This document shows, piece by piece, positions 3,685 through 21,605 of a stretch of DNA of 64,000 nt. Source of the DNA: Lachnospiraceae bacterium (GTDB lineage: Bacteria > Bacillota > Clostridia > Lachnospirales > Lachnospiraceae); the NCBI GenBank assembly GCA_024680815.1, contig JAILBQ010000111.1:8600-72599 (forward strand). The letters are read 5' to 3'. The translations under genes were made by a program, and so were the position numbers. The notes under the pieces were generated by a model that made no database searches, was not told the origin of the DNA, and was given only the letters and a program-made list of their open reading frames with translations. Numbering within the stretch: the first letter of the stretch is position 1; each line of letters opens with the position of its first letter.

Positions 3685-5031
3685 ATGGAGTACTGGATAG
3701 TAGTTGTGGATGATGAACCGCTGAGCCTGACTAACGCGAAGCTTCTTTTAAATGAAAACGGCATGCGGGTAAGCTGTCTGAGAAGCGGCAGGGAGCTTTT
3801 AAGGTTCATGGATAAAAATTCGCCTGATCTTATTCTGCTGGATATCCTGATGCCGGAAATGGACGGCTTTGCGACCTATAACAATTTAAGGCAGAACGAG
3901 GAAAAATACGGAAGGGCGAAAACCCCGGTTATCTTTCTTACGGGAGAAAACAACAGGGAGACGGAGCGGCGGGGGCTGAAGGCGGGGGCCTCTGATTTTA
4001 TCCGAAAGCCCTTTGACAGGGATATTCTGCTTAAGCGCATAAAGAATACGATAATCAACAGCAAGACCATAGAAAACCTTACGGAAGAGGCTTCCCTGGA
4101 TAAGCTGACCGGCTTTCTCAACAAGGCCAGCGGGACAGACAGGGTAGGGCGTCTGTGCGGGGAAAGGGCCGGAGCGCTGATGATTTTTGACCTGGACAAT
4201 TTCAAGCTGGTGAATGATCTCTATGGCCACGATATGGGCGACAGAGTACTCGTTGCCTTCTCTGAAATCGTCAGATTAAATATAAGGGCCGAAGATGTGG
4301 TGAGCCGCGTGGGCGGCGATGAATTCATGGCCTATTTCCCGGGGCTAACAGAAGAGGACGCGGTTCGCGCACTGACCGTAAGACTCAACGAACAGTTCAT
4401 GAAAAAAGCGGAGGAGCTTATGGGAGAAGATCACGGCATACCTGTCGGAATTTCCGTCGGGGCCGCTTTTTCGCCCGCTCACACAAAAGACTACCAGCTC
4501 CTCTTCCAGTATGCCGACAGTTCCCTGTATAAGGTAAAACAGAACGGCAGGCACAGCTATGCTATTTATGATGCTGAAGAGGATTTTATCGAGACAGGGG
4601 AAGATCTTGACAGGGAGCTTATCCGGATCACCCGGATTATGGAGGAGAGAGGTGACACAAAGGGAGCCCTGTTTCTTAATCAGGATGCCTTTTCCTGGGA
4701 CTACCGCTTTATAATGCGGTTTATGAAGCGATATAACGGAATCGTCAACAGATTTCTGATTTCTCTGTCCACGGAGGAAAAGGGAGTTGTCTTTTCGGAG
4801 ATTGTGGCTGAATTCGGCAGCGTAATGCGTCAGACCTTAAGACGGTGTGACATTATCTTTCAATGTAAGCCGAATCAGTTTTTTGTGGTTCTTCCTCAGC
4901 TTACGGAGCATAACGCCCCCAAGGTTATCCGGCGTATCCTGGGTGAATGGGAAAAGAAGGAATATCATGACAGGGTTAAAATACGCTATGCCACTGCAAC
5001 GGTTTCTTCTGAAACGGATCAGGGAAAATAA
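3685..5031 (+). CDS. Response regulator diguanylate cyclase (REC-GGDEF) with a C-terminal degenerate GGDEF-like domain
   Basis: REC ILLDILMP; DKLTGFLNK, DLDNFKLVNDLYGHDMGD, RAEDVVSRVGGDEF; the C-terminal region has RRCDIIFQCKPNQF. Confidence 0.93.
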   Translation: MEYWIVVVDDEPLSLTNAKLLLNENGMRVSCLRSGRELLRFMDKNSPDLILLDILMPEMDGFATYNNLRQNEEKYGRAKTPVIFLTGENNRETERRGLKAGASDFIRKPFDRDILLKRIKNTIINSKTIENLTEEASLDKLTGFLNKASGTDRVGRLCGERAGALMIFDLDNFKLVNDLYGHDMGDRVLVAFSEIVRLNIRAEDVVSRVGGDEFMAYFPGLTEEDAVRALTVRLNEQFMKKAEELMGEDHGIPVGISVGAAFSPAHTKDYQLLFQYADSSLYKVKQNGRHSYAIYDAEEDFIETGEDLDRELIRITRIMEERGDTKGALFLNQDAFSWDYRFIMRFMKRYNGIVNRFLISLSTEEKGVVFSEIVAEFGSVMRQTLRRCDIIFQCKPNQFFVVLPQLTEHNAPKVIRRILGEWEKKEYHDRVKIRYATATVSSETDQGK

Positions 5032-5055
5032 CGGCTTAAACGGACATTAAGGAGT

Positions 5056-5451
5056 ATGGGGAAAATGGATGAAAAGCAATACAGAATACTGATTGTGGAC
5101 GATGATCCGGCCTATGCAAAGATGATTAAAGCCTGGATTAAGGATATTTACAGGGTGGATGTGGTGACAGCCGGGGCCCAGGCGATAACCTTCCTTGGCA
5201 GGCTTCCGGGAGATAAAAAGGTGGATATGATACTTTTGGACTATGAGATGCCTGTTATGAACGGCCCCCAGGTGTTTAAGCTTCTTAAGGAGGAGCCGGT
5301 TACAAAGGATATTCCGGTGATCTTTCTTACGGGAGCGGGAAATGAGGAAGCATTGTCTCTTATAAAGAGCCTTGAGCCGAAGGGATATATATCGAAAACC
5401 TCCACAAGGGATGAACTCCTTGAGTATCTGGGGGAAAGGCTCGAGGGATGA
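5056..5451 (+). CDS. Stand-alone receiver-domain (CheY-like) response regulator
   Basis: ILIVDDD, ILLDYEMP, VIFLTG; no output domain; SD AAGGAG. Confidence 0.92.
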   Translation: MGKMDEKQYRILIVDDDPAYAKMIKAWIKDIYRVDVVTAGAQAITFLGRLPGDKKVDMILLDYEMPVMNGPQVFKLLKEEPVTKDIPVIFLTGAGNEEALSLIKSLEPKGYISKTSTRDELLEYLGERLEG

Positions 5452-5995: not shown

Positions 5996-7141
5996 ATGGC
6001 GCTTGAAATAATCAGGTTTAACGGACTTAAAAGCAAAGACTGGCTGATATATAAATATCCTTCTGAGAATATCATCATGGGTTCCCAGCTCATAGTTCAG
6101 GAAGGGCAGGTCGCGATTTTTTCACGCGGCGGAGCTATGGCGGATATGTTTTATCCGGGTACCTATACGCTTAAGACGGAAAATCTGCCGATTCTCAGGA
6201 CTCTTGTAAATCTTCCCTTCGGCGGAAATTCCCCGTTTTCAGCGGAGATCTATTTCGTCAACACCACGGTAAAGCTGGATATAACCTGGGGCACAACGGA
6301 TCCGATACAGCTTGTCGATCCCAAATATCACGTGAAGCTGAGGATAAGGGCTTTCGGACAGATGGGAATGCGTGTCCGCGACGTTTCGGGAATGTTCAGG
6401 GAAATAATCGGAGGTCTCGGAAAGGACGAGTGGGTAAGATTTGACCGGATCAGGGAATACTACCGCGGTATTCTGGTGGTCAAGGTCAAGTCCGCCATCG
6501 CCAACGCAATAATAACGGACGGCATTTCCGCTCTGGAGATAGATGCCTATCTCGACTCATTGTCACAGAAGGTGAAGGAGCAGGTGGAGCCGGAATTTAT
6601 CCGCTACGGTTTTTCAGTGGCGAATTTTTTCATACAATCCATCAACTTCCCGGACGAAGACTTCGATATGATCAACAATATCCTTGCAGACAGGGCTGCG
6701 TTTGATCTTATGGGAGACAACCGCTATGCCACAAAGCGCTCCTTTGACGTCTATCAGGATGCCGCCAGCAACCAGAACGGGATGGCGGGAACCTTCGTGG
6801 CCGGCGGAATGGGTCTCGGCGCAGCCATAGGAGTGGGATCGGCCATGGGTAACGCGCTGGGAAATCCTATGATGCAGAGTCAGGCCGGAAAAGCTATGGG
6901 CGCAGGCGCGGAAGAAGCAGCGGCAGCTGGTGCGGCCGGTGCGGCGGTTGCGGGAGCTGAGGCCGTGGCAGAAGCAGCCTCTTCGAAAAAATGTGTTTCC
7001 TGCGGAGCCGAATTTCCTTCGAAATATAAATTCTGCCCGGAATGCGGTTTTAATAACGCTGAGATTGAGTGCAGGGGATGCGGAAGAATGCTGAACCCCG
7101 GTATAAAATTCTGCCCGGAATGCGGAACCAGAGTTGAATAA
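5996..7141 (+). CDS. SPFH (YdjI-like) domain protein with a C-terminal double zinc ribbon
   Basis: SQLIVQEGQVAIF, PGTYTLKTENLPIL, PFSAEIYFVN, WGTTDPI; four CxxC pairs at the C-terminus (KFCPECG twice). Confidence 0.88.
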   Translation: MALEIIRFNGLKSKDWLIYKYPSENIIMGSQLIVQEGQVAIFSRGGAMADMFYPGTYTLKTENLPILRTLVNLPFGGNSPFSAEIYFVNTTVKLDITWGTTDPIQLVDPKYHVKLRIRAFGQMGMRVRDVSGMFREIIGGLGKDEWVRFDRIREYYRGILVVKVKSAIANAIITDGISALEIDAYLDSLSQKVKEQVEPEFIRYGFSVANFFIQSINFPDEDFDMINNILADRAAFDLMGDNRYATKRSFDVYQDAASNQNGMAGTFVAGGMGLGAAIGVGSAMGNALGNPMMQSQAGKAMGAGAEEAAAAGAAGAAVAGAEAVAEAASSKKCVSCGAEFPSKYKFCPECGFNNAEIECRGCGRMLNPGIKFCPECGTRVE

Positions 7142-7158
7142 CGTGAAAGGAGCCTAAA

Positions 7159-7935
7159 GTGAAAAAGATCATTATTCTGCCGGCGATATTACTTGTTTTT
7201 TACCTTACGATTTTTTCAATAATAACCTTCGGAATCATAAAATTTCAGAATCATGATCATTTCGTGATTGCCCTGATCTTTGAGCTTATCGGCTTTATTC
7301 TTCTGGCACTGGTCGCCGTGATGAATATGATAGTGAATCCGCCTGTTAAAACGGGTTTCTTTGCTCCGCTTACTCTGATTACTCTTTTTTATACAGTATT
7401 CCTTCATATTCTCAACATAGGACTGGTTCAGTTAATGCCTTCCATCTGGGGCGTGCTTCTGAACCTTATACTTCTGTTTGTTTACCTGACGATAGCAGGG
7501 CTTATGGTTTTTGCCGGAAGAATGGATACAAGGCCTCATTCCGGAGTTTTAACCCAGCACGTCATAGGTCGGGAAGCCAGGCAGGAGGGAACAAGGGAAT
7601 GTCCTCACTGTAATGTGATGATCCCCTACAGCGTAGAGTTCTGTCCCGTGTGCGGAAAGCCTTCAAGTCCCCCGCAGCCGCCCATACCTCCGGTGTCCCA
7701 GCCGCTGACTCCTCCGGCGAGCGCCACCTTCGGCAGACCGGTCCAGGTGGCGAGCGGCGATCCGGGGATGCCGGGAAGCGCTTATGCGCCCGTAACGCCG
7801 CCGCCTGCGCCCGTAACGCCGCCGCCTGCACCGGCGCCTTCAGGGGCAGGGTCTGCTCCTCTCGTGTGTGCCTGCGGAGCCCCGCTGCTTATGGGCTCTA
7901 AATTCTGTCCGAACTGCGGCCGTTCCGTGGGATGA
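7159..7935 (+). CDS. Membrane protein (4 TM) with two zinc ribbons separated by a Pro-rich linker
   Basis: Hydrophobic N-terminal 120 aa; CPHC...CPVCG and CACG...CPNCG; GTG start with SD AAGGAG. Confidence 0.8.
   Translation: MKKIIILPAILLVFYLTIFSIITFGIIKFQNHDHFVIALIFELIGFILLALVAVMNMIVNPPVKTGFFAPLTLITLFYTVFLHILNIGLVQLMPSIWGVLLNLILLFVYLTIAGLMVFAGRMDTRPHSGVLTQHVIGREARQEGTRECPHCNVMIPYSVEFCPVCGKPSSPPQPPIPPVSQPLTPPASATFGRPVQVASGDPGMPGSAYAPVTPPPAPVTPPPAPAPSGAGSAPLVCACGAPLLMGSKFCPNCGRSVG
7785..7826 (+). repeat. Two exact tandem copies of a 21-bp unit encoding APVTPPP
   Basis: TGCGCCCGTAACGCCGCCGCC x2, read directly. Confidence 0.95.
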
Positions 7936-7971
7936 ACCGTGGAAACAGCGGGATAAGAGTGACGGAAAAGT

Positions 7972-9321
7972 ATGGATGAAAAGAATATAATGATTACATT
8001 TCCAATCATTGAAATACTGTTGATGATCCTGGTATGTTTCATCTTGCTCAGGCTCAATCACGCTATTTTCAAGCAGCTTCAGAGAAAGAAGAAAAGACTG
8101 CATCTCCTGTTTTTCGAAAATGTGTTAAGGGCCGGGATCATCATTTTCTGCGTGATTGTTGCGCTTTCGGGATATGAAGGATTTACGAAGCTGTACCGGT
8201 TTATTTTCAGCGGTACGGTTGTTTTAACCGGTGTTGTCGGACTTGCCTGCCAGGATATCTTAAAGGACATCCTCGCGGGAGTTCTAATTTCTCTGTGCAG
8301 ACCCTTCGATGTGGGGGACAGGGTGCTCATAAACGATATTGAAAAACCCTGCGTGGTGGAGGATATGACAGTACGTCATGTGGTTTTAAAGACCATGGAC
8401 GGAATCCGCTATCTTATTCCCAACAGCGAAATCAACAACAAGCTGATCACCAATACCAGCTATCACCAGAAGCTGCGTGGAACCTTTATAAAAATTCCGG
8501 TGGCTTATTCGGCTGATTTAAGAAAGGCGATTGAAGTTACAAGAAAGGTTGTACGCGACTGCCCCTTTACCTTCCCGAACAACGAGAATAATGATGATCT
8601 GGATAACTACGGCGAGGTCTATGTGGTGGGGTATGACTCCAGCTCGGTTACACTGGAAACCACAATCTGGACCGAGCCTTCCATGGACAACTTCCTCGCC
8701 TGCAGCGAGATACGTTTAAGCATCATAGAGGCTTTCCGTAAGAACGGCGTGGAGATCCCGTATAATTATACCAATGTCATCCTTAAAGAGCAGAAGGATG
8801 ATATACAGTATATAACTCCGGTTCAGCGCGATATCACGTCAAAGTCGGATATAATCACTGTCACGAACTACAGAAAAGAGCTGCCGGAATGCCTGAAGCA
8901 CGTTAAGAAGTTCCAGGAATTCTATAAATTTGATATCAAGTGGGATACTTTAAATCTCCTTGTTGAAGAGCTCCTGATGTTCAGCAACCGCATTCTTCCC
9001 AGGGAAAAAATGGATTTCTGGATGGAAGCCAATATGCGGAGGATAAAGTTCTGTCTGCAAACCACAGGAATTATCAAGGTCTCAAAGCTGATGAAGCTGG
9101 TTAATAAAAATAAAAATGTAAAGCTTCCGGATGTACTCATAGCCCGCTTAAGGCTGATGGTTAAAAAGGACATCGAGCCTGACGGGTGGCTTTTCGACTC
9201 TGACAGCATAGGAGGAGAGGATGATATGATTGAGAAAAAGCTCCTGATGGCGTATGCGGATTCCCTGAAGATCGGAGTAATTGATAAACATCTGACGATT
9301 GCGGTGATAAAAAATCTTTAG
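7972..9321 (+). CDS. MscS-family mechanosensitive channel with a ~170-aa C-terminal extension
   Basis: TM N-terminus, GLACQDILKDILAG, RPFDVGDRV, RYLIPNSEI, IEAFRKNGVEIPY. Confidence 0.88.
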   Translation: MDEKNIMITFPIIEILLMILVCFILLRLNHAIFKQLQRKKKRLHLLFFENVLRAGIIIFCVIVALSGYEGFTKLYRFIFSGTVVLTGVVGLACQDILKDILAGVLISLCRPFDVGDRVLINDIEKPCVVEDMTVRHVVLKTMDGIRYLIPNSEINNKLITNTSYHQKLRGTFIKIPVAYSADLRKAIEVTRKVVRDCPFTFPNNENNDDLDNYGEVYVVGYDSSSVTLETTIWTEPSMDNFLACSEIRLSIIEAFRKNGVEIPYNYTNVILKEQKDDIQYITPVQRDITSKSDIITVTNYRKELPECLKHVKKFQEFYKFDIKWDTLNLLVEELLMFSNRILPREKMDFWMEANMRRIKFCLQTTGIIKVSKLMKLVNKNKNVKLPDVLIARLRLMVKKDIEPDGWLFDSDSIGGEDDMIEKKLLMAYADSLKIGVIDKHLTIAVIKNL

Positions 9322-9348
9322 GAACAGTTGCGGAAAGGGCAGGATTTT

Positions 9349-10263
9349 ATGGAGGAGTTAAAGGAGACATACGGAAGAGCGGTGCTTGAAAGCCTAGCGG
9401 AAATATACCGGCAGCTCTATCTCGTGCCGGGAAAGAAGGGTGAGGAGGAATACTCTCTTGTTGTACGGCAGGGGCAGGAGCCGGAGGAAAAAAATCTTTC
9501 CCACTTTAAATCAGACGAAAAGGACAGTCTCGTCTTTATGGACACGCCGGTGGGAGAGGTCTGCGTGATTACCCTCAATGAGAGGCAGGATTTTGTGACC
9601 TTTCTGCAGATAATGGCAAACCGCTGTGCGGAAGTTAATATTCCGGATACTCAGGGAGCATCCATTTTAAGCGGGGTTATTAACTGGAGAAAGATAGAGG
9701 CGCGCAGAGACGCTTTTTTTGAAGAGGAAAAGGAAAAGGGGAACGACTTTCCGGACTGGAACGGGGAGTTTAAGCGCTTTACTTCGGATAAGTCGAATTA
9801 TCTCGATACGCTTATAGTGCTGTCAGTGGGACCTTACAGCTTTGTTCCGGGATCGGAATTCGGCTTTTCCGCGGAAGAATGGACAGCTTATTCAAATACC
9901 ATACGTCTGTATCACGAGTGTACCCACTTTATATGCCGGAAGAAGTTTCCCGAAAAAAAGGACGCGGTTATGGACGAGCTTGTGGCGGATGCCGTGGGTA
10001 TTTATGCCGCTTTCGGGAAGTTCAACCGTCAGATGGAAGAGAGATTTTTAGGTATCAGCGGGGGACATTATACGGGCGGGCGGCTTGAAAATTATGTGAC
10101 GGCTGATACGGAGGAAGAAAAAAGCCGCATTCTTGCGGAAATGTCCGGAAAGGTATCGGCCGTGCTCTCGGAATTCGATGATATCATTTCCGCCCGGGAA
10201 TCCATATCACCCTTTGAACTGGCGGTATTGCTGGGCGAGGGTTCTTTTTCGGTAACAATTTGA
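9349..10263 (+). CDS. Hypothetical protein with an HExxH motif (possible metallopeptidase fold)
   Basis: Long ORF; IRLYHECTHF and downstream DELVADAVG; ATG 9349 has a purine-rich SD. Confidence 0.7.
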   Translation: MEELKETYGRAVLESLAEIYRQLYLVPGKKGEEEYSLVVRQGQEPEEKNLSHFKSDEKDSLVFMDTPVGEVCVITLNERQDFVTFLQIMANRCAEVNIPDTQGASILSGVINWRKIEARRDAFFEEEKEKGNDFPDWNGEFKRFTSDKSNYLDTLIVLSVGPYSFVPGSEFGFSAEEWTAYSNTIRLYHECTHFICRKKFPEKKDAVMDELVADAVGIYAAFGKFNRQMEERFLGISGGHYTGGRLENYVTADTEEEKSRILAEMSGKVSAVLSEFDDIISARESISPFELAVLLGEGSFSVTI

Positions 10264-10381
10264 CGGGCTGATTTGTTCTGTACTGCCAGGATTGCCTTTG
10301 ACAAATTCAGGAAGGACGCGGAAAACTGGTATACAGGAAAGACCAGCTAAATCTGCTGTTTTGAAAGGGGAGAAAAGCAGC

Positions 10382-11065
10382 TTGCAGCGTGACCATGAGC
10401 TGGCACGGAAAAGAGTGCTGGCGGCAGGAATAATACTGATAGTTCTGGCTCTTTTTGCCGTTATAGCGATTAAGTTTTACCTCCCGATACTCAAAATGGC
10501 GGATAATCCCGAGGAATTCAGGCTTTATCTGGAGGAAAGGGGGGTTGGCGGAATAGTTCTCTTCACCGTGATTATGGCCCTTCAGGTTATAATCGCGGTG
10601 ATTCCCGCAGGCCCGCTGGAGGTCGCCGCCGGATACTGTTTCGGTTCCTTTATCGGGACACTGATATGCGATATAGGGATGACTGTCGGCAGCGTAACGG
10701 TTTTCGCCCTGGTCAGACGTTTTGGAATGGCTTTTATCGAGCTTTTCTTTTCGAAGGAAAAAATAAAGTCACTGAAGATTCTCAAAAGTACCGGACAGTC
10801 GAGACTGGTGCTCTTTCTGATTTTTCTGATTCCGGGAACCCCGAAAGATATCATCGGCTACGGCGTGGGTCTCACCGATCTGAAGCTTCTGCCCTGGATT
10901 TTCATTACCCTGATCGGGAGAATCCCGTCCATACTTCTTTCCGCCATGAGCGGGGATGCGCTTATGGAAGGAGATTATACTGTCTTTATAATTATTATCG
11001 TCGCACTGGTTTTATCGGCGGGAATCGGGACTTTTGTTTACCGCAGGTGGTTCCGTAAGCAGTAA
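10382..11065 (+). CDS. TVP38/TMEM64 (VTT/DedA-like) membrane protein
   Basis: LQVIIAVIPAGPLEVAAGYCFG, FLIPGTPKDIIGYGVGLT; TTG 10382 follows GAAAGGGGAG. Confidence 0.88.
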   Translation: MQRDHELARKRVLAAGIILIVLALFAVIAIKFYLPILKMADNPEEFRLYLEERGVGGIVLFTVIMALQVIIAVIPAGPLEVAAGYCFGSFIGTLICDIGMTVGSVTVFALVRRFGMAFIELFFSKEKIKSLKILKSTGQSRLVLFLIFLIPGTPKDIIGYGVGLTDLKLLPWIFITLIGRIPSILLSAMSGDALMEGDYTVFIIIIVALVLSAGIGTFVYRRWFRKQ

Positions 11066-11075
11066 GAAAGCATTT

Positions 11076-11945
11076 TTATTCCGTCTGTTCCGGTTTGTCC
11101 TCGATCTTATTGATGATGTCCTGATAGCTGCTGTGACCGTTTTCCGCAAAATTGTTCAACAGCATTCCGGTTCCGAACAGCTTGTGGTACATGAACTGTT
11201 TTTTCATATGAGCATACCGCTCTTCCAGCTCGGAAAGCTTCTGCTTCTGTTTTTCTTTTCTTTCCTCATACTTCTGCTTTCCTTTGGCGAGCTTATCCAT
11301 CGCGTTCAGCGTATCGGCTGTTATATGCTCCGTCATTCCGTCACTGAGCTTCAGGATCGCATTCTCCATACGCTTCATGTGTTCAAGCTGTTTGTTCAGC
11401 TTCAGAATCGTCATGACGGTGATTATCAGATCGGCAATAAAGACAAGGTACATAACTCCAAGCATAAGCTTCCCCGCGAAAACGGGAATAATACCGATCA
11501 CTTTGTCAAAAAACGGCTGGATCACACGCAGCACAAAGGCAATGGCAAGGCCCCAGACGATACTGAACTCCAGGCAGATATATCCGTTCAGGTTAAACCT
11601 CCTGTCTCTGTAATCCCACCATCTGGCGTGAAACAGCTTGTCCAGAAGAAAGCCCGCAATGAGCTCTATAAGCGTGGCAAAAACGATACCTACAATGAAA
11701 AGGAGAAGGGAGCTGGCTTTTTCGAGATCCGTCTCGAACCCGAATATGCTTCCGGCTATATTCAGGGCAGAGAGTACCATTATAACTCCGCAGCCGTATA
11801 CGGGGCATAAGGGGCCGTTAAGAAATCCCCTGTTGACGGCCTTCCCCAGGGTAACCGCATGGAAGCTGACCTCTATCATCCAGCCCACAACCGAGTAAAT
11901 CATGAAGTACCACAAAATGTTATAAACTGTCATTCCGAAAAGCAT
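11076..11945 (-). CDS. Putative ABC transporter permease (CmpB/DUF1113-like)
   Basis: FMIYSVVGWMIE, NRGFLNGPLCPVYG, RWWDYRDRRFNLNGYICL signature. Confidence 0.85.
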   Translation of the reverse strand: MLFGMTVYNILWYFMIYSVVGWMIEVSFHAVTLGKAVNRGFLNGPLCPVYGCGVIMVLSALNIAGSIFGFETDLEKASSLLLFIVGIVFATLIELIAGFLLDKLFHARWWDYRDRRFNLNGYICLEFSIVWGLAIAFVLRVIQPFFDKVIGIIPVFAGKLMLGVMYLVFIADLIITVMTILKLNKQLEHMKRMENAILKLSDGMTEHITADTLNAMDKLAKGKQKYEERKEKQKQKLSELEERYAHMKKQFMYHKLFGTGMLLNNFAENGHSSYQDIINKIEDKPEQTE

Positions 11946-12066: not shown

Positions 12067-12158
12067 CATGATATGATACAAACGTCAAAAGTCCAAATGG
12101 CGTTCGAGCTGGCTCGATAAGCCATTTGACTTTTGGCGACCAAATCATGTTATGATAC
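12067..12158. repeat. 56-nt inverted repeat (12083-12138) flanked by 13-bp imperfect direct repeats; REP/MITE-like
   Basis: CGTCAAAAGTCCAAATGGC...TCGAGC-TG-GCTCGA...GCCATTTGACTTTTGGCG; flanks CATGATATGATAC (12067-12079) and CATGTTATGATAC (12146-12158). Confidence 0.7.
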
Positions 12159-12226
12159 CACCAGCAGGATTCGTGAGGAGGCCGGGTATTGTTTTTAAGG
12201 GGGCCGGGGAAACGGTAAATCGGGTT

Positions 12227-15200
12227 ATGGAAAAAAGCATAGTATTTACAAACGACAATTGTATAGGCTGTAATAAATGCATCAAGGTCTGCAGCGCGAT
12301 AGGAGCCTGTATATCCAGAGAGGAAAACGGAAGGGCCAGAATAGCCGTCGACGGAAGCAAATGTGTGGCCTGCGGAAGCTGCATTGATGTATGCGTACAC
12401 GACGCCAGGGAATTCCTTGACGATACGGAGCGGTTTTTTGAGGATCTTAAAGGCGGGGAGGAAATATCCCTTCTCCTTGCTCCCGCCTTTAAGGCCAATT
12501 ATCCGGACGAGTATGAAAGCGTGCTGGGAGGCCTGAAACAGCTCGGAATCAGAAGAATCATCAGTGTTTCCTTCGGCGCGGATATCACCACCTGGGGATA
12601 TATCAATTACATTAAGAAACATGATTTTACCGGAGGAATATCCCAGCCCTGTCCGGCTGTGGTTTCCTATATCGAAAGATACCTGCCGGAGCTTCTTCCG
12701 AAGCTCTTTCCGGTGCAGAGTCCCCTGATGTGCGCGGCAAAGTATGCCAGAAACGAAATGGGCATAAAGGACAGGTTTGCCTTTATCAGTCCTTGCATAG
12801 CCAAAAAGCTGGAAATCGAGGATCCTCATAACGCCGGCCTGGTTCAGTACAATGTGACTTTTGAGCATCTTATGAGGTATGTAAGGGAGCACGGCATCAA
12901 AGGCGCTCCGGTCCACAGCGAGATAGAGTACGGACTCGGATCCTATTATCCGACTCCGGGGGGACTTGCGGAGACTGTCAGGTGGTTTCTCGGCGATAAT
13001 GTTTTCATCCGCCAGGTCGAGGGGGAACGCCATCTCTATGAATGGATGCATCTGAATGAAGAGAGGATTAAAAACACAAAGACACCGTTTTTATTCATAG
13101 ACGCCCTTAACTGCAAAAACGGCTGTATCTGCGGTACGGCGGTAAATCCGGAAAAATCAAAGAACGACGATGCTCTTTATGCCCTGCTTGAAATCAGGGA
13201 AAAATCCAAAAAGACACAGAGCGGAGATGCCTGGTCCGTACCCGATACCCCGGCGGAGCGGCTTAAGAACTACAATAAGCAGTTTGAGAACCTTAAGCTT
13301 GAAGATTATACGCGGGGATATACCGACAGATCCGCGGAATGCAGATACCTTATACCGGATAAGGAGGAGCTGGACAGGATCTTTGTCAGCATGAACAAAC
13401 TGACTGAAGACTCCCGTCAGATCAACTGCACCTGCTGCGGGTACGATGGCTGTGAACAGATGGCGACCGCTATATTTAACGGATTCAACCATAAAGAGAA
13501 CTGTATCTATTACGAGAGGGCAATGATTCATGATCTGGAGATGGAAAAGACCATTGCCGAGGAAGCCACAAGAGCCAAGAGCGCTTTTCTGGCCAATATG
13601 TCCCATGAGATCAGGACACCGATAAACGCTGTTCTGGGAATGAATGAGATGATCTTAAGGGAGAGCAGGGAGAAAAGCATTATCGGATATGCCGAAAATA
13701 TACGTGCGGCCGGTAATACGCTTCTGGGACTTGTCAATAATATACTTGATTTTTCCAAGATCGAAGCGGGAAAGATAGAAATCATTCCCGTGGAATATGA
13801 CCTGTCCTCCGTAATAAACGATATCGTCATTATGATACAGACCAGGGCGGACAACAAGGGACTGGAGTTTAAGATTGATTTCAATAAAGAAATACCGAAG
13901 CGCCTTTACGGCGACGAGATAAGACTGAAGCAGATTATCACGAACATTCTTTCCAATGCGGTCAAATATACGGAAAAGGGGAGCGTTTGCTTCAGTATGG
14001 ATTACGAACGCGATCCGGCTGAGTCAAACAGCGTGTTTCTTGACGTTTCAATAAGGGATACCGGTATCGGTATTCGGCCGGAAGACATGCATAAGCTCTT
14101 TTCGGAGTTTGAGCGGATTGAGGAGGAGAGAAACAGAACCATTGAAGGCACAGGCCTCGGAATGAACATAACACGCCAGCTCCTTGAAATGATGGACTCC
14201 TCCCTTGGGGTTGAAAGCGTTTACGGTGAGGGCTCGCACTTTTATTTCAGGCTGAAGCAGAAGGTAATCAGCTGGGAAGGCGTCGGAGATTATAAAGCCT
14301 CTTATAAGACCGCTGCCGCGGCAGGCAAAAAGTACAAAGAAAGCTTCACGGCGCCGGATGCCCTTGTGCTTGTGATTGATGATACCGAAACAAATCTTTC
14401 GGTATTTAAGAGCCTGCTGAAACGTACAAAGGTAAAAATAGAAACCGCGTCAGGCGGTGACGAAGGCCTCTCTCTTACCCGTGATACGAAATATGACATT
14501 ATTTTCCTCGACCATATGATGCCGGAAAAAGACGGAATACAGACGTTTCACGAGCTTCGCGGGGAGGCTCAAAATCCGAATCTTTTTACACCGGTGATCT
14601 GTCTTACCGCAAATGCCATTTCCGGCGCAAGGGAGGAATATCTTTCCGAAGGCTTTGATGATTATCTGACCAAGCCGATAGACGCCGAAAGGCTTGAAGA
14701 GATGCTGAAGGAATACCTGCCGGAGGAAAAGGTTATCGTATCGGACTCCGAAGAGGAGGAGGCGGAAGAGGAAAGCGTACCGCTTCCGGAGTGGCTTATG
14801 GCCTGCGGGGGGATTGATACACAGGAAGGTGTAAAAAACTCAGGAGGAACAGAGGAATATCTGAAAATTCTTACGCTCTTTCATTCCGCGATTGAATCAA
14901 AGGCCGATGAGATAGAAGAGTATTACAAAGCCGGGGATATCCGTAACTACACGGTGAAGGTGCATGCGCTTAAATCCTCCGCCAGAATTGTAGGCGCGGC
15001 GGAGCTGTCCGAAAAGGCGGCACTTCTGGAGGACGCGGGCAATGAGAACAATACGGAATATATCAGGGAAAACACGGATGAACTTTTAAGACAGTACAGG
15101 TCATATAAGGATATTCTCGCTCCGCTTTCCGGGAGCGCCGAGGAGCTTCCGGATATTCCGGCCGATGTGCTGGCGGATGCGTATGCGGGCCTTATGGAAT

Positions 15201-15361
15201 TCGCGGAAATGCAGGATTACGAGCTTGCCCGCATGGTAGTGGAGTCCATGAAGGAATACTCCCTTCCGGGTGAAGACAGGGAGCGCTTTAAGGAAATTCA
15301 GGCTTTCCTGGCCGGGATGGACTGGGACGGGATAATGGATGTCATAAAAAGAAGAGGGTAG
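12227..15361 (+). CDS. Sensory [FeFe]-hydrogenase-like (group C/HydS-type) module fused to a hybrid histidine kinase (HisKA-HATPase-REC-Hpt)
   Basis: 2x[4Fe-4S] CIGCNKCIKVC / CVACGSCIDVC; H-cluster-like motifs SQPCP, SPCIAKKLE, DALNCKNGCICG; FeS domain CTCCGYDGC...ENC; then FLANMSHEIRTP, LDHMMP, VKVHALKSS. ATG 12227 chosen because the ferredoxin motif starts immediately after it. Confidence 0.9.
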   Translation: MEKSIVFTNDNCIGCNKCIKVCSAIGACISREENGRARIAVDGSKCVACGSCIDVCVHDAREFLDDTERFFEDLKGGEEISLLLAPAFKANYPDEYESVLGGLKQLGIRRIISVSFGADITTWGYINYIKKHDFTGGISQPCPAVVSYIERYLPELLPKLFPVQSPLMCAAKYARNEMGIKDRFAFISPCIAKKLEIEDPHNAGLVQYNVTFEHLMRYVREHGIKGAPVHSEIEYGLGSYYPTPGGLAETVRWFLGDNVFIRQVEGERHLYEWMHLNEERIKNTKTPFLFIDALNCKNGCICGTAVNPEKSKNDDALYALLEIREKSKKTQSGDAWSVPDTPAERLKNYNKQFENLKLEDYTRGYTDRSAECRYLIPDKEELDRIFVSMNKLTEDSRQINCTCCGYDGCEQMATAIFNGFNHKENCIYYERAMIHDLEMEKTIAEEATRAKSAFLANMSHEIRTPINAVLGMNEMILRESREKSIIGYAENIRAAGNTLLGLVNNILDFSKIEAGKIEIIPVEYDLSSVINDIVIMIQTRADNKGLEFKIDFNKEIPKRLYGDEIRLKQIITNILSNAVKYTEKGSVCFSMDYERDPAESNSVFLDVSIRDTGIGIRPEDMHKLFSEFERIEEERNRTIEGTGLGMNITRQLLEMMDSSLGVESVYGEGSHFYFRLKQKVISWEGVGDYKASYKTAAAAGKKYKESFTAPDALVLVIDDTETNLSVFKSLLKRTKVKIETASGGDEGLSLTRDTKYDIIFLDHMMPEKDGIQTFHELRGEAQNPNLFTPVICLTANAISGAREEYLSEGFDDYLTKPIDAERLEEMLKEYLPEEKVIVSDSEEEEAEEESVPLPEWLMACGGIDTQEGVKNSGGTEEYLKILTLFHSAIESKADEIEEYYKAGDIRNYTVKVHALKSSARIVGAAELSEKAALLEDAGNENNTEYIRENTDELLRQYRSYKDILAPLSGSAEELPDIPADVLADAYAGLMEFAEMQDYELARMVVESMKEYSLPGEDRERFKEIQAFLAGMDWDGIMDVIKRRG

Positions 15362-15376
15362 AAACAGGAGAAGAGT

Positions 15377-17428
15377 GTGAACAGTATTATAAAAGAACGG
15401 TTGATGATATTGATCACCACCCTGGCGGGAATATCCTGCATATTGCAGAATTTCTTCGGAGGGTGGGAATTCTGGATGCCTGCGGTGGTTCTGATCGGAG
15501 GCGTGGCTTTGTGGTACGTTCATTTTACCCAGAAGCCGGATTCATACTACAGAATCAATATTTATTTTGCCTATGCGGCTTTACTGCTCTTTTATCACGG
15601 CGTTCACGATACCAGTTTGTTTGATCTTTCTGTCTCCGTTGTGCTTTTTATGGTTACGTTTACAATGGCCGACAGTATAAGGATGCTCAATCTTATCCTG
15701 GCCGAATACGGGATAGTGATGGCGATTCAATTCTGGTTCCTGTACAGGAACGGCGGGCTTAACATGAGTGCGTTTAACGGTATGAGGATAGTTTATCATA
15801 TCGGTACCGTGCTTATTATGTATGTTTTCAGCCGCATTACCGTCAGCAACAGGGTTTCAGAGCGCGAGAGGATAAAAAGGTGGGAGGAATCCGTCCGGGA
15901 AAACGACAGCGATATGGAGGATTTCCTTTCGAATATTTCGCATGAACTGCGTACACCAGTGAACGTGATAAGCGGAATGACTGCCATCATGCAGAAAGAT
16001 AATGACTGCAAAGAGCTTGCCTCCATAAAGGATGCGGGAATCCGGCTGGCCAGGCAGATAGAGGATATTCAGGATTATACGGAGATAAAGCGGGGCGAGC
16101 TCCATCTTGAGGAAGAGAACTATATGAGCATCTCCCTGATAAATGATGTTGTAGCCTACTATAAGGAAAACAACAGGAACAAAAACCTTGATCTGGTCGT
16201 GGATATCGCACCGGAAACGCCGTCGATGCTAAAGGGAGATGTAAAAAAGCTCGGCAAGCTCTTAAGGCATCTTCTGGATAACTCAATCAAGTTTACCAGA
16301 CACGGGGGCATATATATTAAGATGTTCTCTGTGCCGCAGAAATACGGTACAAACCTGACAATAGAGGTTACGGATACAGGCATAGGCATGACCCGGGGGG
16401 AGATGTCACGCCTGTCAAAGGGGATGTATCAGGCCAACAAAAAGCGTAACCGCAGTACCGGAGGAATAGGCACGGGGGTGCCTGTTGTATATGGCTTTGT
16501 ACGCAAAATGGGAGGCTTTGTCAAAATAGACAGCTCAAAGGGCAGAGGCACGACGGTTCACATTTCGATTCCGCAGCAGGTAGTGGATCCGGCTCCCTGT
16601 CTGAAAATTGAAGAGGAAGCCAGGGAGGGTCTGGTTTTCTTCATAAGACCCGAAAAATACAAAGTGCCCGAGGTACGGGAATTCTACAGAAACATGGCCG
16701 TAAACCTGGCCAGGGGGCTTAATGTAAAGCTCTATTCCGCGGGCGAGAAGAGGGAGCTGGAGCAGGTTATAAAGGAGCTTAACATTTCCCATATCTTCAC
16801 GGGCCGGGAGGAATACGAGGACGAAACCGGAATGCTCGATTATTTATTGAGCCAGGGCTACAAGGTGGTGGTGTCCGCGGATGAGGGTTATAAAGCTCCT
16901 CCGGGCAGCGGGATTATGGTGCTCCCCAAGCCCCTGTATGCCTTCCCCATCGTGCGGGTTTTAAACGGTGAAGAGGTTGCGGACGGATACGGGGAGGAGA
17001 ATAAAGGACGGCTTTCCTTTGACGGAGTGCGTGCTCTTGTTGTGGATGACGAGCCCATGAACCTTGTGGTGGCGTCAGGCCTGTTCCGGAATTATGAAAT
17101 GGATATCGATACCGCGGAAAGCGGCAGGGAAGCCATCAAGAAGTTTGACAGGAATGACTATGATGTCATCTTCATGGATCATATGATGCCGGAGATGGAC
17201 GGCGTCGAAGCCATGAAAATCATAAGACAGGCGGCCCTGGGAAGCGGCAGAAAGCCTGTCATTGTCGCTCTTACCGCCAACGCCTTAAGCGGAGCCAGAG
17301 AGATGTTCATAAAAGAGGGATTTGACGGGTTTATTGCCAAACCCATAGATATAGCGGAGTTCGAAAGGGTTATGAAACGTGTCCTGCCCGAAGAATTGTT
17401 TAATTACAAGGGGAGGGATGAGCAGTGA
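15377..17428 (+). CDS. Membrane-bound hybrid histidine kinase (multi-TM, HisKA, HATPase, degenerate REC, REC), no Hpt
   Basis: About 5-6 TM segments; FLSNISHELRTP, LLDNSIKFT, DTGIG, atypical G2 GGIGTG; C-terminal IFMDHMMP. Confidence 0.9.
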   Translation: MNSIIKERLMILITTLAGISCILQNFFGGWEFWMPAVVLIGGVALWYVHFTQKPDSYYRINIYFAYAALLLFYHGVHDTSLFDLSVSVVLFMVTFTMADSIRMLNLILAEYGIVMAIQFWFLYRNGGLNMSAFNGMRIVYHIGTVLIMYVFSRITVSNRVSERERIKRWEESVRENDSDMEDFLSNISHELRTPVNVISGMTAIMQKDNDCKELASIKDAGIRLARQIEDIQDYTEIKRGELHLEEENYMSISLINDVVAYYKENNRNKNLDLVVDIAPETPSMLKGDVKKLGKLLRHLLDNSIKFTRHGGIYIKMFSVPQKYGTNLTIEVTDTGIGMTRGEMSRLSKGMYQANKKRNRSTGGIGTGVPVVYGFVRKMGGFVKIDSSKGRGTTVHISIPQQVVDPAPCLKIEEEAREGLVFFIRPEKYKVPEVREFYRNMAVNLARGLNVKLYSAGEKRELEQVIKELNISHIFTGREEYEDETGMLDYLLSQGYKVVVSADEGYKAPPGSGIMVLPKPLYAFPIVRVLNGEEVADGYGEENKGRLSFDGVRALVVDDEPMNLVVASGLFRNYEMDIDTAESGREAIKKFDRNDYDVIFMDHMMPEMDGVEAMKIIRQAALGSGRKPVIVALTANALSGAREMFIKEGFDGFIAKPIDIAEFERVMKRVLPEELFNYKGRDEQ

Positions 17429-20400
17429 AGTTTTTCGGAAAAATCAAAGAACGCATTTTCGGATACCTTTATGATTCGTCGATCTATGTAAAGGACAGAA
17501 CCTTTGTGCTCTTTATCATCGCCGAGCTTGAGGCGCTCTTTGTCCAGTCACTGATCAGCATGTTTTTAGGCGAGTCCCGTTCCAACTCAATGATAACATT
17601 GGCCGGTGTCGTTATCGGTGCCATGCTGATGCTGTTACTGATAAAAAAAGACAAGATCAGGACTGCCAGAATCGTGGTCACACTGATACTTGTATGTGCC
17701 CTGCGTCCCGTGCTGTTTTTCGCGAAAGGAGGAATCAACAACGGCACGCTGATTATGTTTCTTCTGGGAAGCTACTATCTGGTGCTGGTTCTGGACGGTG
17801 TCTTCAGGGTCGTTATGTGTCTGCTGGATACAACCGTTCTTATCGCCTGCGGGATCATGGCCTACTACCATCCGGTGCTTCTGGCCGATTATTCACGAAA
17901 AGGAAATTACGTCCATTCATTCATTCAATATATCATAACCCTGATCGTGCTTACGGTCCTGATTATTTTCCAGACCAGGATATATCAGAAGGAAGCAAAG
18001 AACGCGGAGGACAAATCGAAGGAGCTGGAGGAGATGAACAGGGCCCAGAACCGCTTTTTCTCCAGTATGAGCCATGAGATACGAACCCCTATAAACACGG
18101 TGCTGGGACTGAACGAGATCATACTCCGCCAGGAGGACGCTTCCGAGGAGATCCGGAGAGACGCAGCCAATATTCAGGGCGCGGGCAAAATGCTGCTTGC
18201 TCTTATAAACGATATCCTTGACATGTCAAAGATCGAGGCCGGAAAGATGGATATCGTGCCGGTGAATTATGATGTGACCTCGCTATTATCGGATATTGTC
18301 AATATGATCTGGCTGAAGGCGGAGGAAAAGGGATTGAAATTTGAGGCTGATATCGATCCCAATGTGCCTGAAGCCCTGTACGGAGATGAAGTCAGAATCA
18401 AGCAGATACTTATAAATCTTCTGAACAATGCCGTCAAATATACCCAGGCAGGCTTTGTGAGCCTCCATATCGAGTGTGAATTTACCGGAACGGATGATGT
18501 GCTGCTTAAAATAAGCGTTTCCGATACCGGAATAGGCATAAAGCCGGAGGCACTGCCGTGTCTTTTTAACACCTTCCAGAGGGTTGATGAGGAAAAAAAC
18601 CGTTATATTGAGGGAACGGGTCTCGGATTGTCGATCGTCAAGCAGCTTGTCGGGCTGATGGACGGGGAGATAACGGTAAACAGTGTTTATACGCAGGGCT
18701 CCACCTTCACCGTCACCTTGAAACAGAAGGTATCCTCGGATAAGCGTATAGGAGATATCAATATCACAAGCTCCGGCCTGCCGGGAACGGGGAAGTATGA
18801 ACACAGCTTCGAGGCGCCGACTGCCAGGATTCTTATAGTTGATGACGACGAGATGAATCTGCAGGTTGAGAAGAAGCTTCTCGGCGAAACCCACATGCAT
18901 GTGGATCTGGCTCTTTCCGGGATCGAGGCACTGGGTCTTACGCTCCGCAACAGATATGACGTTATCCTTATGGACCATCTGATGCCTGAAATGAGCGGAA
19001 TCGAATGCTTTGAGCGGATACGCGCCCAGAAGGGAGGACTGAATCAGAATATACCTGTTATCGTCCTTACCGCCAATGCAGGAGGAGAAAACTTTGAACT
19101 GTACAATAATACGGGCTTTGACGGCTACCTTGTCAAACCGGTATCGGGCCGTCAGCTTGAAAGTATGCTGCTTGCCCATCTTCCTGCCGGGAAGGTTGTA
19201 AGCACCGGAAGCATTGAGATGACAGGCTCCCAGATAAACACCGCGGACAGATATGCGAAAAAGAAACCCGTAGTGATAGCGACCAGCACCATGAGTGACC
19301 TGCCGCAGAATATCATAAAGGAGCTGCAGATCAGCATCATTCCCTACACGGTCATAACAAACGAGGGTGAGTTTTTTGATAATATAGACATGGATTCCGA
19401 AGAGCTTGTACAGTATATGTCGGAAAAGAGCAGACTGGTTACCTCGGAACCGCCGTCGGAGGAGGCGTTGGCCCGGTTCTTCTCCGCGGAATTAAAAAAG
19501 GCCCATCATCTGATCTATATCACACTTACCACCAGCAGCAGCAGGGAATACGCGAGGGCCATAAACGCGGCGAAGACCTTTGACAACGTCACGATAGTTA
19601 ATTCGGAATATCTGTCCAGCTCAACGGGTATTCTTGTCATGGCAGCGGCAAGGCTGGCGGGACAGGGGATGCAGGTTGACAGGATAGTCTCAGAACTCGA
19701 GGAGACCAAAAAATTCATAAGATGCAGCTTTGTGGTAAAGAACGCTGACGTAATGGCAAGACGCGAGCGCATCAGCCCGTTTATGAGCAACATCCTGAAC
19801 ACCTTCTGGCTCCGGCCGATGCTGAGAGTCGTAAACGACAGACTGGGCGTCGGAAGATTCATGTTCGGAAGCAAAATGAAATGCTATGAAAAATACATAA
19901 AACATGCTCTGCCGTCCAATGAAGGAATCGACACTTTATTTGTGTTCGTTACCTATGCGGGTATGGATGAAGAGGATCTTTTATGGATAGAAGAGAAGGT
20001 AAAGGAAAGGGTCAGCTTTGAAAATGTTGTCTTCCAGAAAGCATCGGCCGGAATATCCTCCAACTGCGGGGCGGGAACCTTCGGGCTTCTGTATATGATA
20101 AAGGGCAACAGAAATTATAATTTCGGACCGCTTTTCGCAAAAGAGACAGGGGAGGCCGTGAACCGGGAAGACCTTCCGGAGGAGGAAGAAGCGGATATTG
20201 AGGAGGGCCTGGAAGAGACCTCTCCCGGGGCGGATGAGGGCACGAAGGAGAAAAAATGGTATGAAGACGTTCCGGGAATCGATCCGGAAGAGGCCATAAA
20301 GGTAAGCGGCACGGAGGAAGCTTTTCTGTCGGTGCTTCAGATTTATTATGATTCCTACGCTGCAAAGTCAGAAGAGATCCAGGGGTATTATGATTCGCAG

Positions 20401-20841
20401 GACTGGGAAAATTACACAATCAAGGTACACGCCTTAAAAAGCAGCTCCAGACTTGTGGGCGCAATGAAAATCGGTGAAGATGCCGAAGCGCTGGAAATGG
20501 CGGGGAAGAGGTCGGATATTGATTTCATTACAGACCACCACGACAGCCTCATGGAGGAATACCGCGCCGTGATTGATCAGCTGAAGCCCGTGATGGCAAA
20601 AGCAAAGGAGGATGCTCCGGATATTCCTGAGGATATTCTTTCGGATGCGTATGAAGCGCTTCTGGAATTTTCCGGGGCAATGGATTATGAACTTGTAAAG
20701 ACTGTTCTGGATTCCGTACAGGAATACAAGCTTTCTCCCGGGGATGAGGAACGCTTTGAAAGAGTGAATATATTATTGTCACAGATGGACTGGGATGGTA
20801 TAAAAGAAACTATAAATAACAGGGGGGATTCTGAAGTATGA
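17425..20841 (+). CDS. Hybrid histidine kinase with an internal DegV domain (TM-HisKA-HATPase-REC-DegV-Hpt)
   Basis: [34 protein letters not shown]; DegV-like ATSTMSDLP...IIPYTV...TSEPP...[10 protein letters not shown]...NCGAGTFG (~19261-20100); Hpt IKVHALKSS. Confidence 0.92.
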   Translation: [1138 protein letters not shown]

Positions 20842-21605
20842 AAAAAACAATTCTTATTGTTGCTCCCGCGGAGGGGTTTATCATCAAGGGGCTTGAAACG
20901 AAGCTCCTGGGCATAGGAGTAGAATCCGAATACTCGCCTCCGAAGCTTAAGGAGCTCCAGAACAAATGCTATAAAGGAGATCTTATTATCATCTTTACCG
21001 ATGACAGTGTGGAATCGATAGCCGATGTATTCGTATTTATCAAGGATTTCTGCATAGAAAGGGATAAGCAGGTCATAGTGGTAGGTACGAAAAATGAGTA
21101 TGATGTTCTGAAAGAGTATATAACGGAGGACATAATTGCGGAATTCTTTGAAAGACCTCTGGATATCGGGAGTCTGCTGAACAAAGTGGAGAGCTGTCTG
21201 GAAAAGGGCACGGAACAGGAAAGGAGAAAGAGCATTCTCGTAGTCGATGACGACGTGTCCTATATGAGTATGATAATGGACTGGCTCAAGGATTCCTACA
21301 GGGTTTCTCTGGCAAATTCCGGCATGTCGGCCATCACCTGGCTTGCAAAAAATCGTGCGGATCTTATTCTTCTGGACTACGAAATGCCTATTACAACCGG
21401 TCCGAAGGTTCTTGAAATGCTGAGATCCGATGCGGAGCTGTCCGATATACCGGTTATGTTTCTTACGGGAAAGGGTGATAAGGAAAGCATAATGAAGGTT
21501 CTTGCACTGAAGCCCGTGGGATATCTCCTCAAAACGGTAAAAAAGGAGGAGCTGCGCGGAACCATCAAAAAATTCTTCGTTACACAAACGGTGAAAAGCA
21601 GCTGA
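20838..21605 (+). CDS. Response regulator with a degenerate N-terminal REC-like domain and a C-terminal REC; no DNA-binding domain
   Basis: C-terminal ILVVDDD, ILLDYEMP, VMFLTG; the N-terminal half has a REC-like pattern without the canonical Asp motif. Confidence 0.88.
   Translation: MKKTILIVAPAEGFIIKGLETKLLGIGVESEYSPPKLKELQNKCYKGDLIIIFTDDSVESIADVFVFIKDFCIERDKQVIVVGTKNEYDVLKEYITEDIIAEFFERPLDIGSLLNKVESCLEKGTEQERRKSILVVDDDVSYMSMIMDWLKDSYRVSLANSGMSAITWLAKNRADLILLDYEMPITTGPKVLEMLRSDAELSDIPVMFLTGKGDKESIMKVLALKPVGYLLKTVKKEELRGTIKKFFVTQTVKSS

Follow-up and report, generated by a model that had tools for sequence, protein, structure and literature searches.

A soluble hybrid histidine kinase with a hydrogenase-derived iron-sulfur input, a candidate H2 sensor of a Lachnospiraceae bacterium

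Introduction

Putative sensory [FeFe]-hydrogenases, known as group C (M2f) and group D (M2e), carry an N-terminal 2x[4Fe-4S] domain, have lost the proton-relay Cys and possess a C-terminal cluster motif Cx2Cx4Cx16C (PMC8163306, PMC13104023). HydDB divides group C into histidine kinase-linked (C1), chemotactic (C2) and phosphatase-linked (C3) enzymes, all of them with a "putative, undetermined role" (PMC5037454), and a review likewise terms the role of group C putative (PMC8924675). Here we analyse a gene of this kind, located at 12227..15361 on the forward strand of a 64,000-nucleotide stretch of DNA from a Lachnospiraceae bacterium (GenBank assembly GCA_024680815.1, contig JAILBQ010000111.1, positions 8,600 to 72,599); the whole stretch is called the window below. 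The original prediction, made from the letters of the window without database searches, had described the product as a cytoplasmic H2 or redox sensor that feeds a phosphorelay.

Among the described systems, TamHydS of Thermoanaerobacter mathranii (group D, M2e) resembles the window protein, as far as can be compared by description, in combining 2x[4Fe-4S], the hydrogenase catalytic domain (H-domain) and Cx2Cx4Cx16C without a PAS domain. In TamHydS, Ser and Leu occupy the positions of M353 and M497 of the catalytic hydrogenase CpI, the proton-relay Cys is not conserved, and a kinase-like ATPase is found among the gene neighbours (PMC8163306). It differs in being a stand-alone protein with no fused output; moreover, uptake of [2Fe]adt and reaction with H2 have been demonstrated for TamHydS, whereas the window clade is known from sequence. 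The enzymes of the TmHydS and Ruminococcus albus HydS type (group C, M2f; HydDB C3) have three iron-sulfur modules in the same order as here. The regulatory [NiFe] hydrogenases HoxBC/HupUV with the kinase HoxJ/HupT (group 2b) offer a functional parallel, since in them a histidine kinase is informed of H2 by a crippled hydrogenase (PMC5037454), but their metal site and fold are unrelated, sensor and kinase are separate proteins, and the hosts are aerobic H2 oxidisers.

The enzymes studied so far are only of the PAS or stand-alone type, and a kinase-fused member offers a direct read-out, namely autophosphorylation with and without H2. The H2 partial pressure in the rumen steers fermentation and methane output. 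A hydrogenase fold need not mean H2: Nar1 (IOP1, NARFL) of eukaryotes retains the iron-sulfur ligands of this fold in organisms without HydEFG. By description, Nar1 and IOP1 differ from the window protein in having neither a Cx2Cx4Cx16C domain nor a signalling output, and in their role in cytosolic iron-sulfur assembly.

Results

Domain architecture of the sensor kinase

The gene lies inside an open reading frame (ORF) that spans 12152..15361 on the forward strand. The start at 12227 is likely, because the N-termini of homologues agree with the pattern MxxxSIV(F/Y)TNDNCIGCNKC; the product is then 1044 amino acids (aa) long. Its features are as follows.

12227..15361, stop codon included, forward strand: sensor hybrid histidine kinase gene, 1044 aa (ORF, translation, Pfam, homologue N-termini).
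12239..12406, forward strand: N-terminal ferredoxin-like domain with two CxxCxxCxxxC motifs (2x[4Fe-4S]), residues 5-60 (Fer4 family matches in Pfam).
12476..13144, forward strand: divergent [FeFe]-hydrogenase H-domain, residues 84-306, with APAF, FGAD, SQPCP (C142), SPCIAKKLE (C190, K193) and DALNCKNGC (C296, C300) (PF02906, PDB sequence matches, fold match, invariant motif columns, alignment to group A, group B and HydS proteins).
13145..13417, forward strand: helical linker, residues 307-397, with a conserved AW...LEDY..YTDRS stretch (AlphaFold2 secondary structure, conserved columns).
13418..13510, forward strand: C-terminal cluster domain Cx2Cx4Cx16C (C401, C404, C409, C426), presumed to hold a [4Fe-4S] cluster and to act as signal transducer (PF04060 at residues 398-428).
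13505..13573, forward strand: coupling helix that joins the last cluster Cys to HisKA (helix 427-444 in the AlphaFold2 model).
13574..14260, forward strand: kinase core, HisKA (450-515) and HATPase_c (562-678) (Pfam; H, N, G1 and G2 boxes).
14366..14707, forward strand: receiver domain Response_reg (REC; 714-827) with the phospho-acceptor D762 (Pfam; DD, D, T and K residues).
14867..15085, forward strand: Hpt domain (881-953) with H913 (Pfam; HALKSS motif).

There is no doubt that the product is a soluble hybrid sensor kinase and that its iron-sulfur input derives from a hydrogenase. Pfam reproduces the domain order that had been read from the translation, that is, 2x[4Fe-4S], H-domain, C-terminal iron-sulfur domain and HisKA-HATPase-REC-Hpt. 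The claimed absence of membrane and PAS domains holds as well: the highest 19-residue Kyte-Doolittle mean in the 1044-aa protein is 1.41, so that no membrane segment is seen, Pfam detects no PAS domain in it, and the helix past C426 enters HisKA directly. The kinase and relay residues are canonical. A single chain contains the H-box His (H460) with the N, G1 and G2 boxes, D762 of the receiver and H913 of the Hpt domain, as in unorthodox hybrid kinases; the best NCBIfam models are BarA, TorS and ArcB, each scoring under its cut-off.

The H-domain: fold, motifs and conservation

PF02906 (Fe_hyd_lg_C) matches residues 84-303 with 99.5 bits (E 3e-28; gathering cut-off 22.1), and a search of PDB sequences yields HydA proteins (E 3e-18 and weaker). 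An AlphaFold2 model of residues 1-445, with 38 homologues in the alignment, has a pLDDT of 85.4 and a pTM of 0.85; it matches the solved [FeFe]-hydrogenases DdH, TmHydA, CpI and CbA5H with TM-scores of 0.60-0.65 (Foldseek E down to 6e-17).

The canonical H-cluster motifs L1-L3 (TSCCP, MPCxxKxxE and ExMxCxxGCxxGGGQP) are not matched: SQPCP, SPCIAKKLE and DALNCKNGCICGT stand in their place, and GGGQP is absent. The positions predicted for these motifs proved correct, with SQPCP at residue 139 (nucleotide 12641), SPCIAKKLE at residue 188 (nucleotide 12788) and DALNCKNGCICG at residue 292 (nucleotide 13100). So did the mapping onto CpI, in which four Cys and the Lys are kept, the proton-relay Cys is replaced by Pro and two Met by Ser and Leu. 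In our alignment, the CpI ligands C300, C355, C499 and C503 correspond to C142, C190, C296 and C300; K358, E361 and the framework motifs APA, FGAD and SP are retained; and the substitutions are C299 to P141, M353 to S188 and M497 to L294. No bulky residue is present at the pocket positions as aligned to group A, group B and HydS proteins.

All these residues, retained and substituted, are invariant in 83 homologous modules. The invariant set comprises the cluster Cys together with APAF, FGAD, SQPCP, (Q/H)SP, SPCIAKK.E and DALNC..GC, and it includes all eight Cys of the N-terminal 2x[4Fe-4S] domain; the Cys of the C-terminal cluster are kept in every module with an ungapped column (81-82 of 83). 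As the motif residues do not vary in the 83 modules, the pattern is not due to chance.

A hydrogenase fold with its ligands in place would also be expected of a catalytic hydrogenase that became fused to a kinase by happenstance, or of a decaying gene. We regard both as highly improbable, since the proton-relay Cys is replaced by Pro in 83 of 83 sequences and both pocket Met are lost. Further points against them are the seven signalling outputs to which the module is joined (see below), its mean column identity of 74% across genera, and the intact ORF with all kinase motifs present.

Classification among the sensory hydrogenases

The window protein shows each of the features by which groups C and D are recognized: the N-terminal 2x[4Fe-4S] domain, the Cx2Cx4Cx16C motif, the lost proton-relay Cys and the replaced M353 and M497. 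The C-terminal motif is shared only with the group C and D sensors (our alignment; PMC8163306, PMC13104023). Groups A and B are as distant from the module as HydS.

The classical HydS proteins of Lachnospiraceae are 26-29% identical to the window module over the first approximately 300 aligned residues and 27-31% identical over residues 5-430. They differ from it in having an added PAS domain and in their gene context, with a PP2C phosphatase gene following and hydABC adjacent; those aligned keep CCP at L1, have G at position 353 and form a separate deep clade.

Within group C, the original prediction had pointed to HydDB subgroup C1. We addressed the assignment by BLAST against the HydDB-labelled fragments in the supplement of a rumen hydrogenase survey (PMC6776011), so that it refers to fragments only and is not the HydDB k-nearest-neighbour class. 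The C1 fragments contain STACPS or SSYCP followed by SPCPSKV or TPCAAKI, while the C2 fragments contain ISQPCP or TQQCP, then SPC(F/I)A(K/E)(R/K), and further ...YTDRS...NCGACGY..C..MA.AIFNG (PMC6776011). The module matches the C2 H-domain fragments over their full length with 35% identity (E 5e-27 and 4e-24) and the C2 C-terminal fragment with 40% identity (E 9e-15); the matches to C1 references are partial alignments of 74-87 residues (E 4e-9 and 4e-5).

The C2 references of Treponema bryantii (WP_022931679) and Ruminococcus flavefaciens (WP_028517519) agree with the window protein in (I)SQPCP or TQQCP at L1, SPC(I/F)A(K/E)K at L2 and the YTDRS...Cx2Cx4Cx16C..AIFNG tail; the YTDRS stretch of the linker is common to the window protein and the reference fragment of T. 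bryantii. The C1 enzymes are similar in concept, being hydrogenase-like sensors linked to a histidine kinase, with a putative role (PMC5037454), but they have different L1 and L2 motifs, and KK.E is absent from them. Thus, the C1 assignment could not be upheld: by sequence, the sensor is of C2 type and carries a kinase output, rather than being a C1 enzyme. It departs from C2 in its output, as that subgroup is named for chemotaxis and the window gene has HisKA-HATPase-REC-Hpt in place of the signalling domain of a methyl-accepting chemotaxis protein (MCP); a paralogue in the same genome, on contig C9, does have MCPsignal.

Homologues, output domains and paralogues

Among 8,000 candidates scored, at least 4,861 were homologues of residues 1-440 at E <= 1e-10. 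The best 120 are 76-83% identical and come from rumen and gut Lachnospiraceae; where they are named, the label is "response regulator". A scan of species genomes gave 80 module loci, and the cultured carriers include Roseburia hominis, R. yibonii, Lachnobacterium bovis DSM 14045 and Lachnospiraceae bacteria AD3010 and P6B14.

The module of approximately 440 aa is joined to seven outputs: HisKA-HATPase-REC-Hpt, HisKA-REC-Hpt (without the ATPase domain), HisKA-Hpt, MCP, MCP-REC, GGDEF and GGDEF-EAL. Kinase, MCP and GGDEF fusions interleave within the clade at 64-80% module identity. In kinase-type homologues (n = 21) the last cluster Cys, equivalent to C426, is always separated from the phospho-His (H460 here) by 34 residues; in the GGDEF and MCP versions the output begins straight after the same helix, and in the AlphaFold2 model a single helix runs from residue 427 onward. 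Fusion to seven outputs and an invariant spacing are typical of a sensor domain, and they suggest, as does the model, that the signal leaves through the C-terminal cluster domain. The fixed 34-residue helix between the last cluster Cys and the phospho-His suggests a concrete coupling mechanism.

The genome from which the window comes (G000; 2.86 Mb in 145 contigs, 92.9% complete) holds four paralogous modules with 63-80% module identity.

Contig C62: the window kinase, HisKA-HATPase-REC-Hpt.
Contig C103, 25840-28545, reverse strand: HisKA-REC-Hpt paralogue without the HATPase domain (Pfam).
Contig C9, 2667-4625, reverse strand: MCPsignal paralogue (Pfam).
Contig C82, 1307-3922, reverse strand: GGDEF-EAL paralogue (Pfam).

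None of the paralogues on C9, C103 and C82 adjoins che, hyd or kinase-cluster genes. The variant without an ATPase domain recurs: in addition to the C103 paralogue it is seen at loci L017, L022, L031 and L034 (approximately 875-900 aa), and locus L032 encodes HisKA-Hpt. Such a protein, unable to autophosphorylate alone, might receive its phosphoryl group in trans from the full kinase, with which it shares 80% identity in the module. The MCP paralogue has as its neighbour an 832-aa protein whose C-terminus resembles flagellin (contig C9, 85-2583), and hence the organism is probably motile.

In Roseburia hominis An869 (locus L045, near position 6172) the module-MCP gene is intact but for one in-frame stop at codon 62 (CEH*AREY), which could reflect recent decay or a sequencing error; hydF is present in this genome, and hydE and hydG were not found in it.

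Maturases and hydrogenases in the source genome

No hydrogenase or maturase gene besides the sensor was found in the window, in agreement with the original prediction, with which a check of the whole genome for hydEFG had been proposed. That check gave a mixed answer. A hydE gene is present (TIGR03956, 453 bits at a cut-off of 255; the radical-SAM CxxxCxxC motif is intact), and hydG and hydF were not found in the 92.9%-complete assembly. The test is not clean, as hydE lies on contig C128 (12,964 bp), which terminates within the gene. In maturase-positive relatives, hydG directly follows hydE in 10 of 20 cases, and the order hydE-hydG-hydF is seen in five of the 20. Because hydE is cut by the contig end and because relatives show this gene order, the missing hydG and hydF are probably, and most simply, placed past the end of contig C128. 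We considered that the contig might be a binning contaminant and rejected this: its GC content is 0.503 against a mean of 0.504, and its tetranucleotide distance ranks 37 of 95.

No catalytic [FeFe]-hydrogenase was detected in the assembly. A search with PF02906, and tblastn with queries from groups A and B and from HydS, matched only the four paralogues, and hence no other client of the maturases is seen there. The same holds for genomes G135 and G141, in which, as in G000, maturases are present and all PF02906 proteins are of the module type. The only catalytic hydrogenase seen in the assembly is an Ech-type [NiFe] group 4e enzyme, encoded in a cluster followed by hypD and hypE (contig C132, 3467-11171), with the motifs RICGICSFGH and DPCISCTER in the large subunit. 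Thus, the organism probably makes H2, and given Ech, hypD and hypE, H2 is physiologically relevant to it.

Maturases across the family

Several observations weigh against an H-cluster in the module, in addition to hydG and hydF not being found in the source assembly. Among module-bearing genomes (n = 50), all three of hydE, hydF and hydG are present in 20, hydF alone in one, and none of them in 29. The seven nearest kinase orthologues (L016, L018, L019, L021, L023, L024, L026) all come from maturase-free genomes, as does the entire Butyrivibrio-like MCP clade. In species genomes at least 95% complete, hydG is present in 9 of 20 module carriers and in 48 of 100 others (Fisher p = 1.0). In genome G042 (99% complete) an 80%-identical orthologue is present, and hydG and hydF were not found. 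The motif residues are equally invariant with and without maturases. The PF02906 score of approximately 100 bits, compared with approximately 190 bits for PAS-type HydS, indicates greater divergence. Finally, the literature searched contained neither a characterised kinase- or MCP-fused hydrogenase sensor nor a characterised member of this clade.

The main rival reading is a redox sensor working with iron-sulfur clusters only. In such a protein [2Fe] would never be carried; four [4Fe-4S] clusters (two N-terminal, the H-domain cubane and the C-terminal one) would equilibrate with reduced ferredoxin, or be oxidised or damaged by O2 or NO, and the redox state of the C-terminal cluster would set kinase activity. 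The result would be a hydrogenase-derived energy or oxygen sensor, functionally similar to Nar1 and IOP1. The Cys ligands and the KK.E motif are also conserved in Nar1-type proteins. In its favour are the 58% of module-bearing genomes without all three maturases, with motifs still invariant over whole clades, the missing statistical association of hydG with the module, and the case of G042; the dominance of MCP fusions in flagellated gut and rumen anaerobes would fit energy taxis or oxygen avoidance.

Other loci argue for the opposite. In Lachnospiraceae bacterium AD3010 (L057, KK211389.1) the module-MCP gene (6001-7953) is followed by hydE (7964-8995), hydG (9032-10480) and hydF (10519-11712); the four genes of the run 6001-11712 lie on one strand with gaps of approximately 10-40 nucleotides, hydE starting approximately 10 nucleotides past module-MCP, and the group B hydrogenase of this strain is on a separate scaffold. 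In the metagenome-assembled genome RGIG9281 the maturases are 3 kb from the module. Such proximity is observed at 2 of 80 loci, compared to 0.17 expected by chance (P about 0.013). In addition, the source genome has hydE with no other [FeFe] client in the assembly, and in a 99%-complete genome of the same genus (G081) the PF02906 genes, and thus the modules, were jointly not found with hydG and hydF.

Moreover, the absence of maturases is not specific to the module. In our census of Lachnospiraceae, PF02906 genes are present in 115 of 121 genomes and hydG in 57. Group A or B genes accompany the module in 45 of the 50 module-bearing genomes, and their H-cluster motifs are perfect in the maturase-free ones; hydABC-HydS-PP2C loci without hydG and hydF occur in G012, G043 and G110. 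Since intact catalytic hydrogenases are equally often without maturases, this absence does not single out the sensor module. In the original prediction, a lack of maturases was to mark a Nar1-like iron-sulfur or O2 sensor; found in 29 of 50 carriers and equally common for intact hydrogenases, it does not prove one. We therefore rejected maturase presence or absence as the decider, given that hydE is at a contig end and that maturases are missing equally often where group A and B hydrogenases are intact or a HydS-PP2C locus is present. On balance, sensing by iron-sulfur clusters only is possible, though somewhat unlikely.

A sensor serving both purposes would report H2 when maturases are present, as they probably are here, and act as a [4Fe-4S] redox sensor in maturase-free relatives, with identical coupling to the output. 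This would cover both the links to maturases in some genomes and the long-term conservation without them in others. It is quite improbable, being unparsimonious, as one pocket would have to be selected for two states.

The census gave several further observations. None of hydE, hydF and hydG is seen in approximately half of the genomes whose [FeFe]-hydrogenase genes are intact (perfect L1-L3), the near-closed G020 (2 contigs) among them. In G025 and G070 hydF is present, and hydG was not found. The 591-aa HydA-type (group A, HydABC-like) proteins of L097-L099, L102, L103, L106-L108, L112, L115 and L116 have TSCSPGW rather than TSCCPGW at L1, that is, Ser at a cluster-ligating Cys position, in maturase-positive and maturase-negative genomes alike.

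Proposed mechanism of H2 sensing

We consider H2 sensing through an H-cluster made by HydEFG to be the best single explanation for this genome, with a probability of about one half. It is favoured because the replacements of M353 by Ser and M497 by Leu equal those of TamHydS, which takes up [2Fe]adt (PMC8163306), and because of the presence of hydE, the AD3010 operon, the proximity in RGIG9281 and the joint absence in G081. Of the original proposal, a cytoplasmic sensor feeding a phosphorelay agrees with the architecture, the fold and the conserved relay residues; that [2Fe] is loaded and that H2 is the ligand are inferences, as are the switching direction and the partners in the relay.

In the proposed mechanism C142, C190, C296 and C300 would hold a [4Fe-4S] cluster, to which HydE, HydG and HydF would add the [2Fe] subcluster. 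Because Pro takes the place of the proton-relay Cys, and Ser and Leu those of the two pocket Met, H2 would be bound and slowly split at this site rather than turned over. H2 would thereby alter the redox state of the cluster chain, the C-terminal Cx2Cx4Cx16C cluster included. C426 would stand at the start of a rigid helix, 34 residues from H460, and reduction of the cluster would switch autophosphorylation. The phosphoryl group would then pass from H460 to D762 and H913, and the next acceptors would be REC proteins from the conserved four-gene kinase cluster or the REC-GGDEF protein encoded nearby. In this organism, H2 would be made by the [NiFe] Ech hydrogenase and sensed by the four paralogous modules.

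The stronger claim, that the genome keeps the maturation genes solely to build sensors, so that four H-cluster modules feed the H2 level in parallel into a multi-kinase phosphorelay, chemotaxis and cyclic di-GMP (c-di-GMP) turnover, seems unlikely. If true, maturases kept for sensors alone would mean a dedicated multi-output hydrogen sense in a rumen fermenter. A sensor family that occurs in many Lachnospiraceae and acts on motility, c-di-GMP and phosphorelays would belong to the control that H2 exerts on rumen fermentation and methane output.

HydDB already has a name for this kind of protein and surveys have repeatedly remarked on it; the window protein adds a member. New here are the correction from C1 to C2 type, the set of paralogues with four outputs in an assembly where no catalytic hydrogenase other than Ech is seen, the sensor-maturase operon of AD3010, the invariant 34-residue coupling and the widespread absence of maturases. 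The last calls for caution in surveys: hydrogenase genes without maturases are common in Lachnospiraceae, and counts of "sensory hydrogenases" may mix H2 sensors and plain redox sensors.

Gene neighbourhood

The sensor gene heads a run of four signalling genes whose junctions are 16 nucleotides long or overlapping, and three further signalling genes are located upstream of it. The neighbouring REC proteins named in the original prediction, beginning at 3685, 5056 and 20838, are all recovered by Pfam.

920-3643, forward strand: HK-REC-Hpt hybrid kinase, upstream of the sensor gene (Pfam).
3685-5031, forward strand: REC-GGDEF response regulator (Pfam).
5056-5451, forward strand: single-domain REC (Pfam).
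15377..17428, forward strand: membrane hybrid kinase HisKA-HATPase-REC, 16 nucleotides downstream of the sensor gene (Pfam; adjoins the sensor gene at 10 or more related loci).
17425..20841, forward strand: membrane hybrid kinase HK-REC-DegV-Hpt, with a 4-nucleotide overlap with the preceding gene (Pfam; beside the sensor gene in L016, L017, L019, L030 and L033).
20838..21605, forward strand: 255-aa protein whose first 130 aa match no family and are followed by REC, with a 4-nucleotide overlap with the preceding gene; candidate terminal acceptor (Pfam; near the sensor gene in 8 loci).

In the closest relatives, too, the sensor gene is accompanied by both membrane kinases and the REC protein. 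The REC-GGDEF and single REC proteins (3685..5451) may be tied to the sensor kinase as well. Promoter and terminator scans gave sites no more frequent than in shuffled sequence. A 158-aa ORF at 21637-22113 has no Pfam match; it, or the N-terminal part of the 20838-21605 protein, could be the output of the relay. In the kinase encoded at 17425-20841, a DegV domain of the fatty-acid-binding type is inserted between REC and Hpt.

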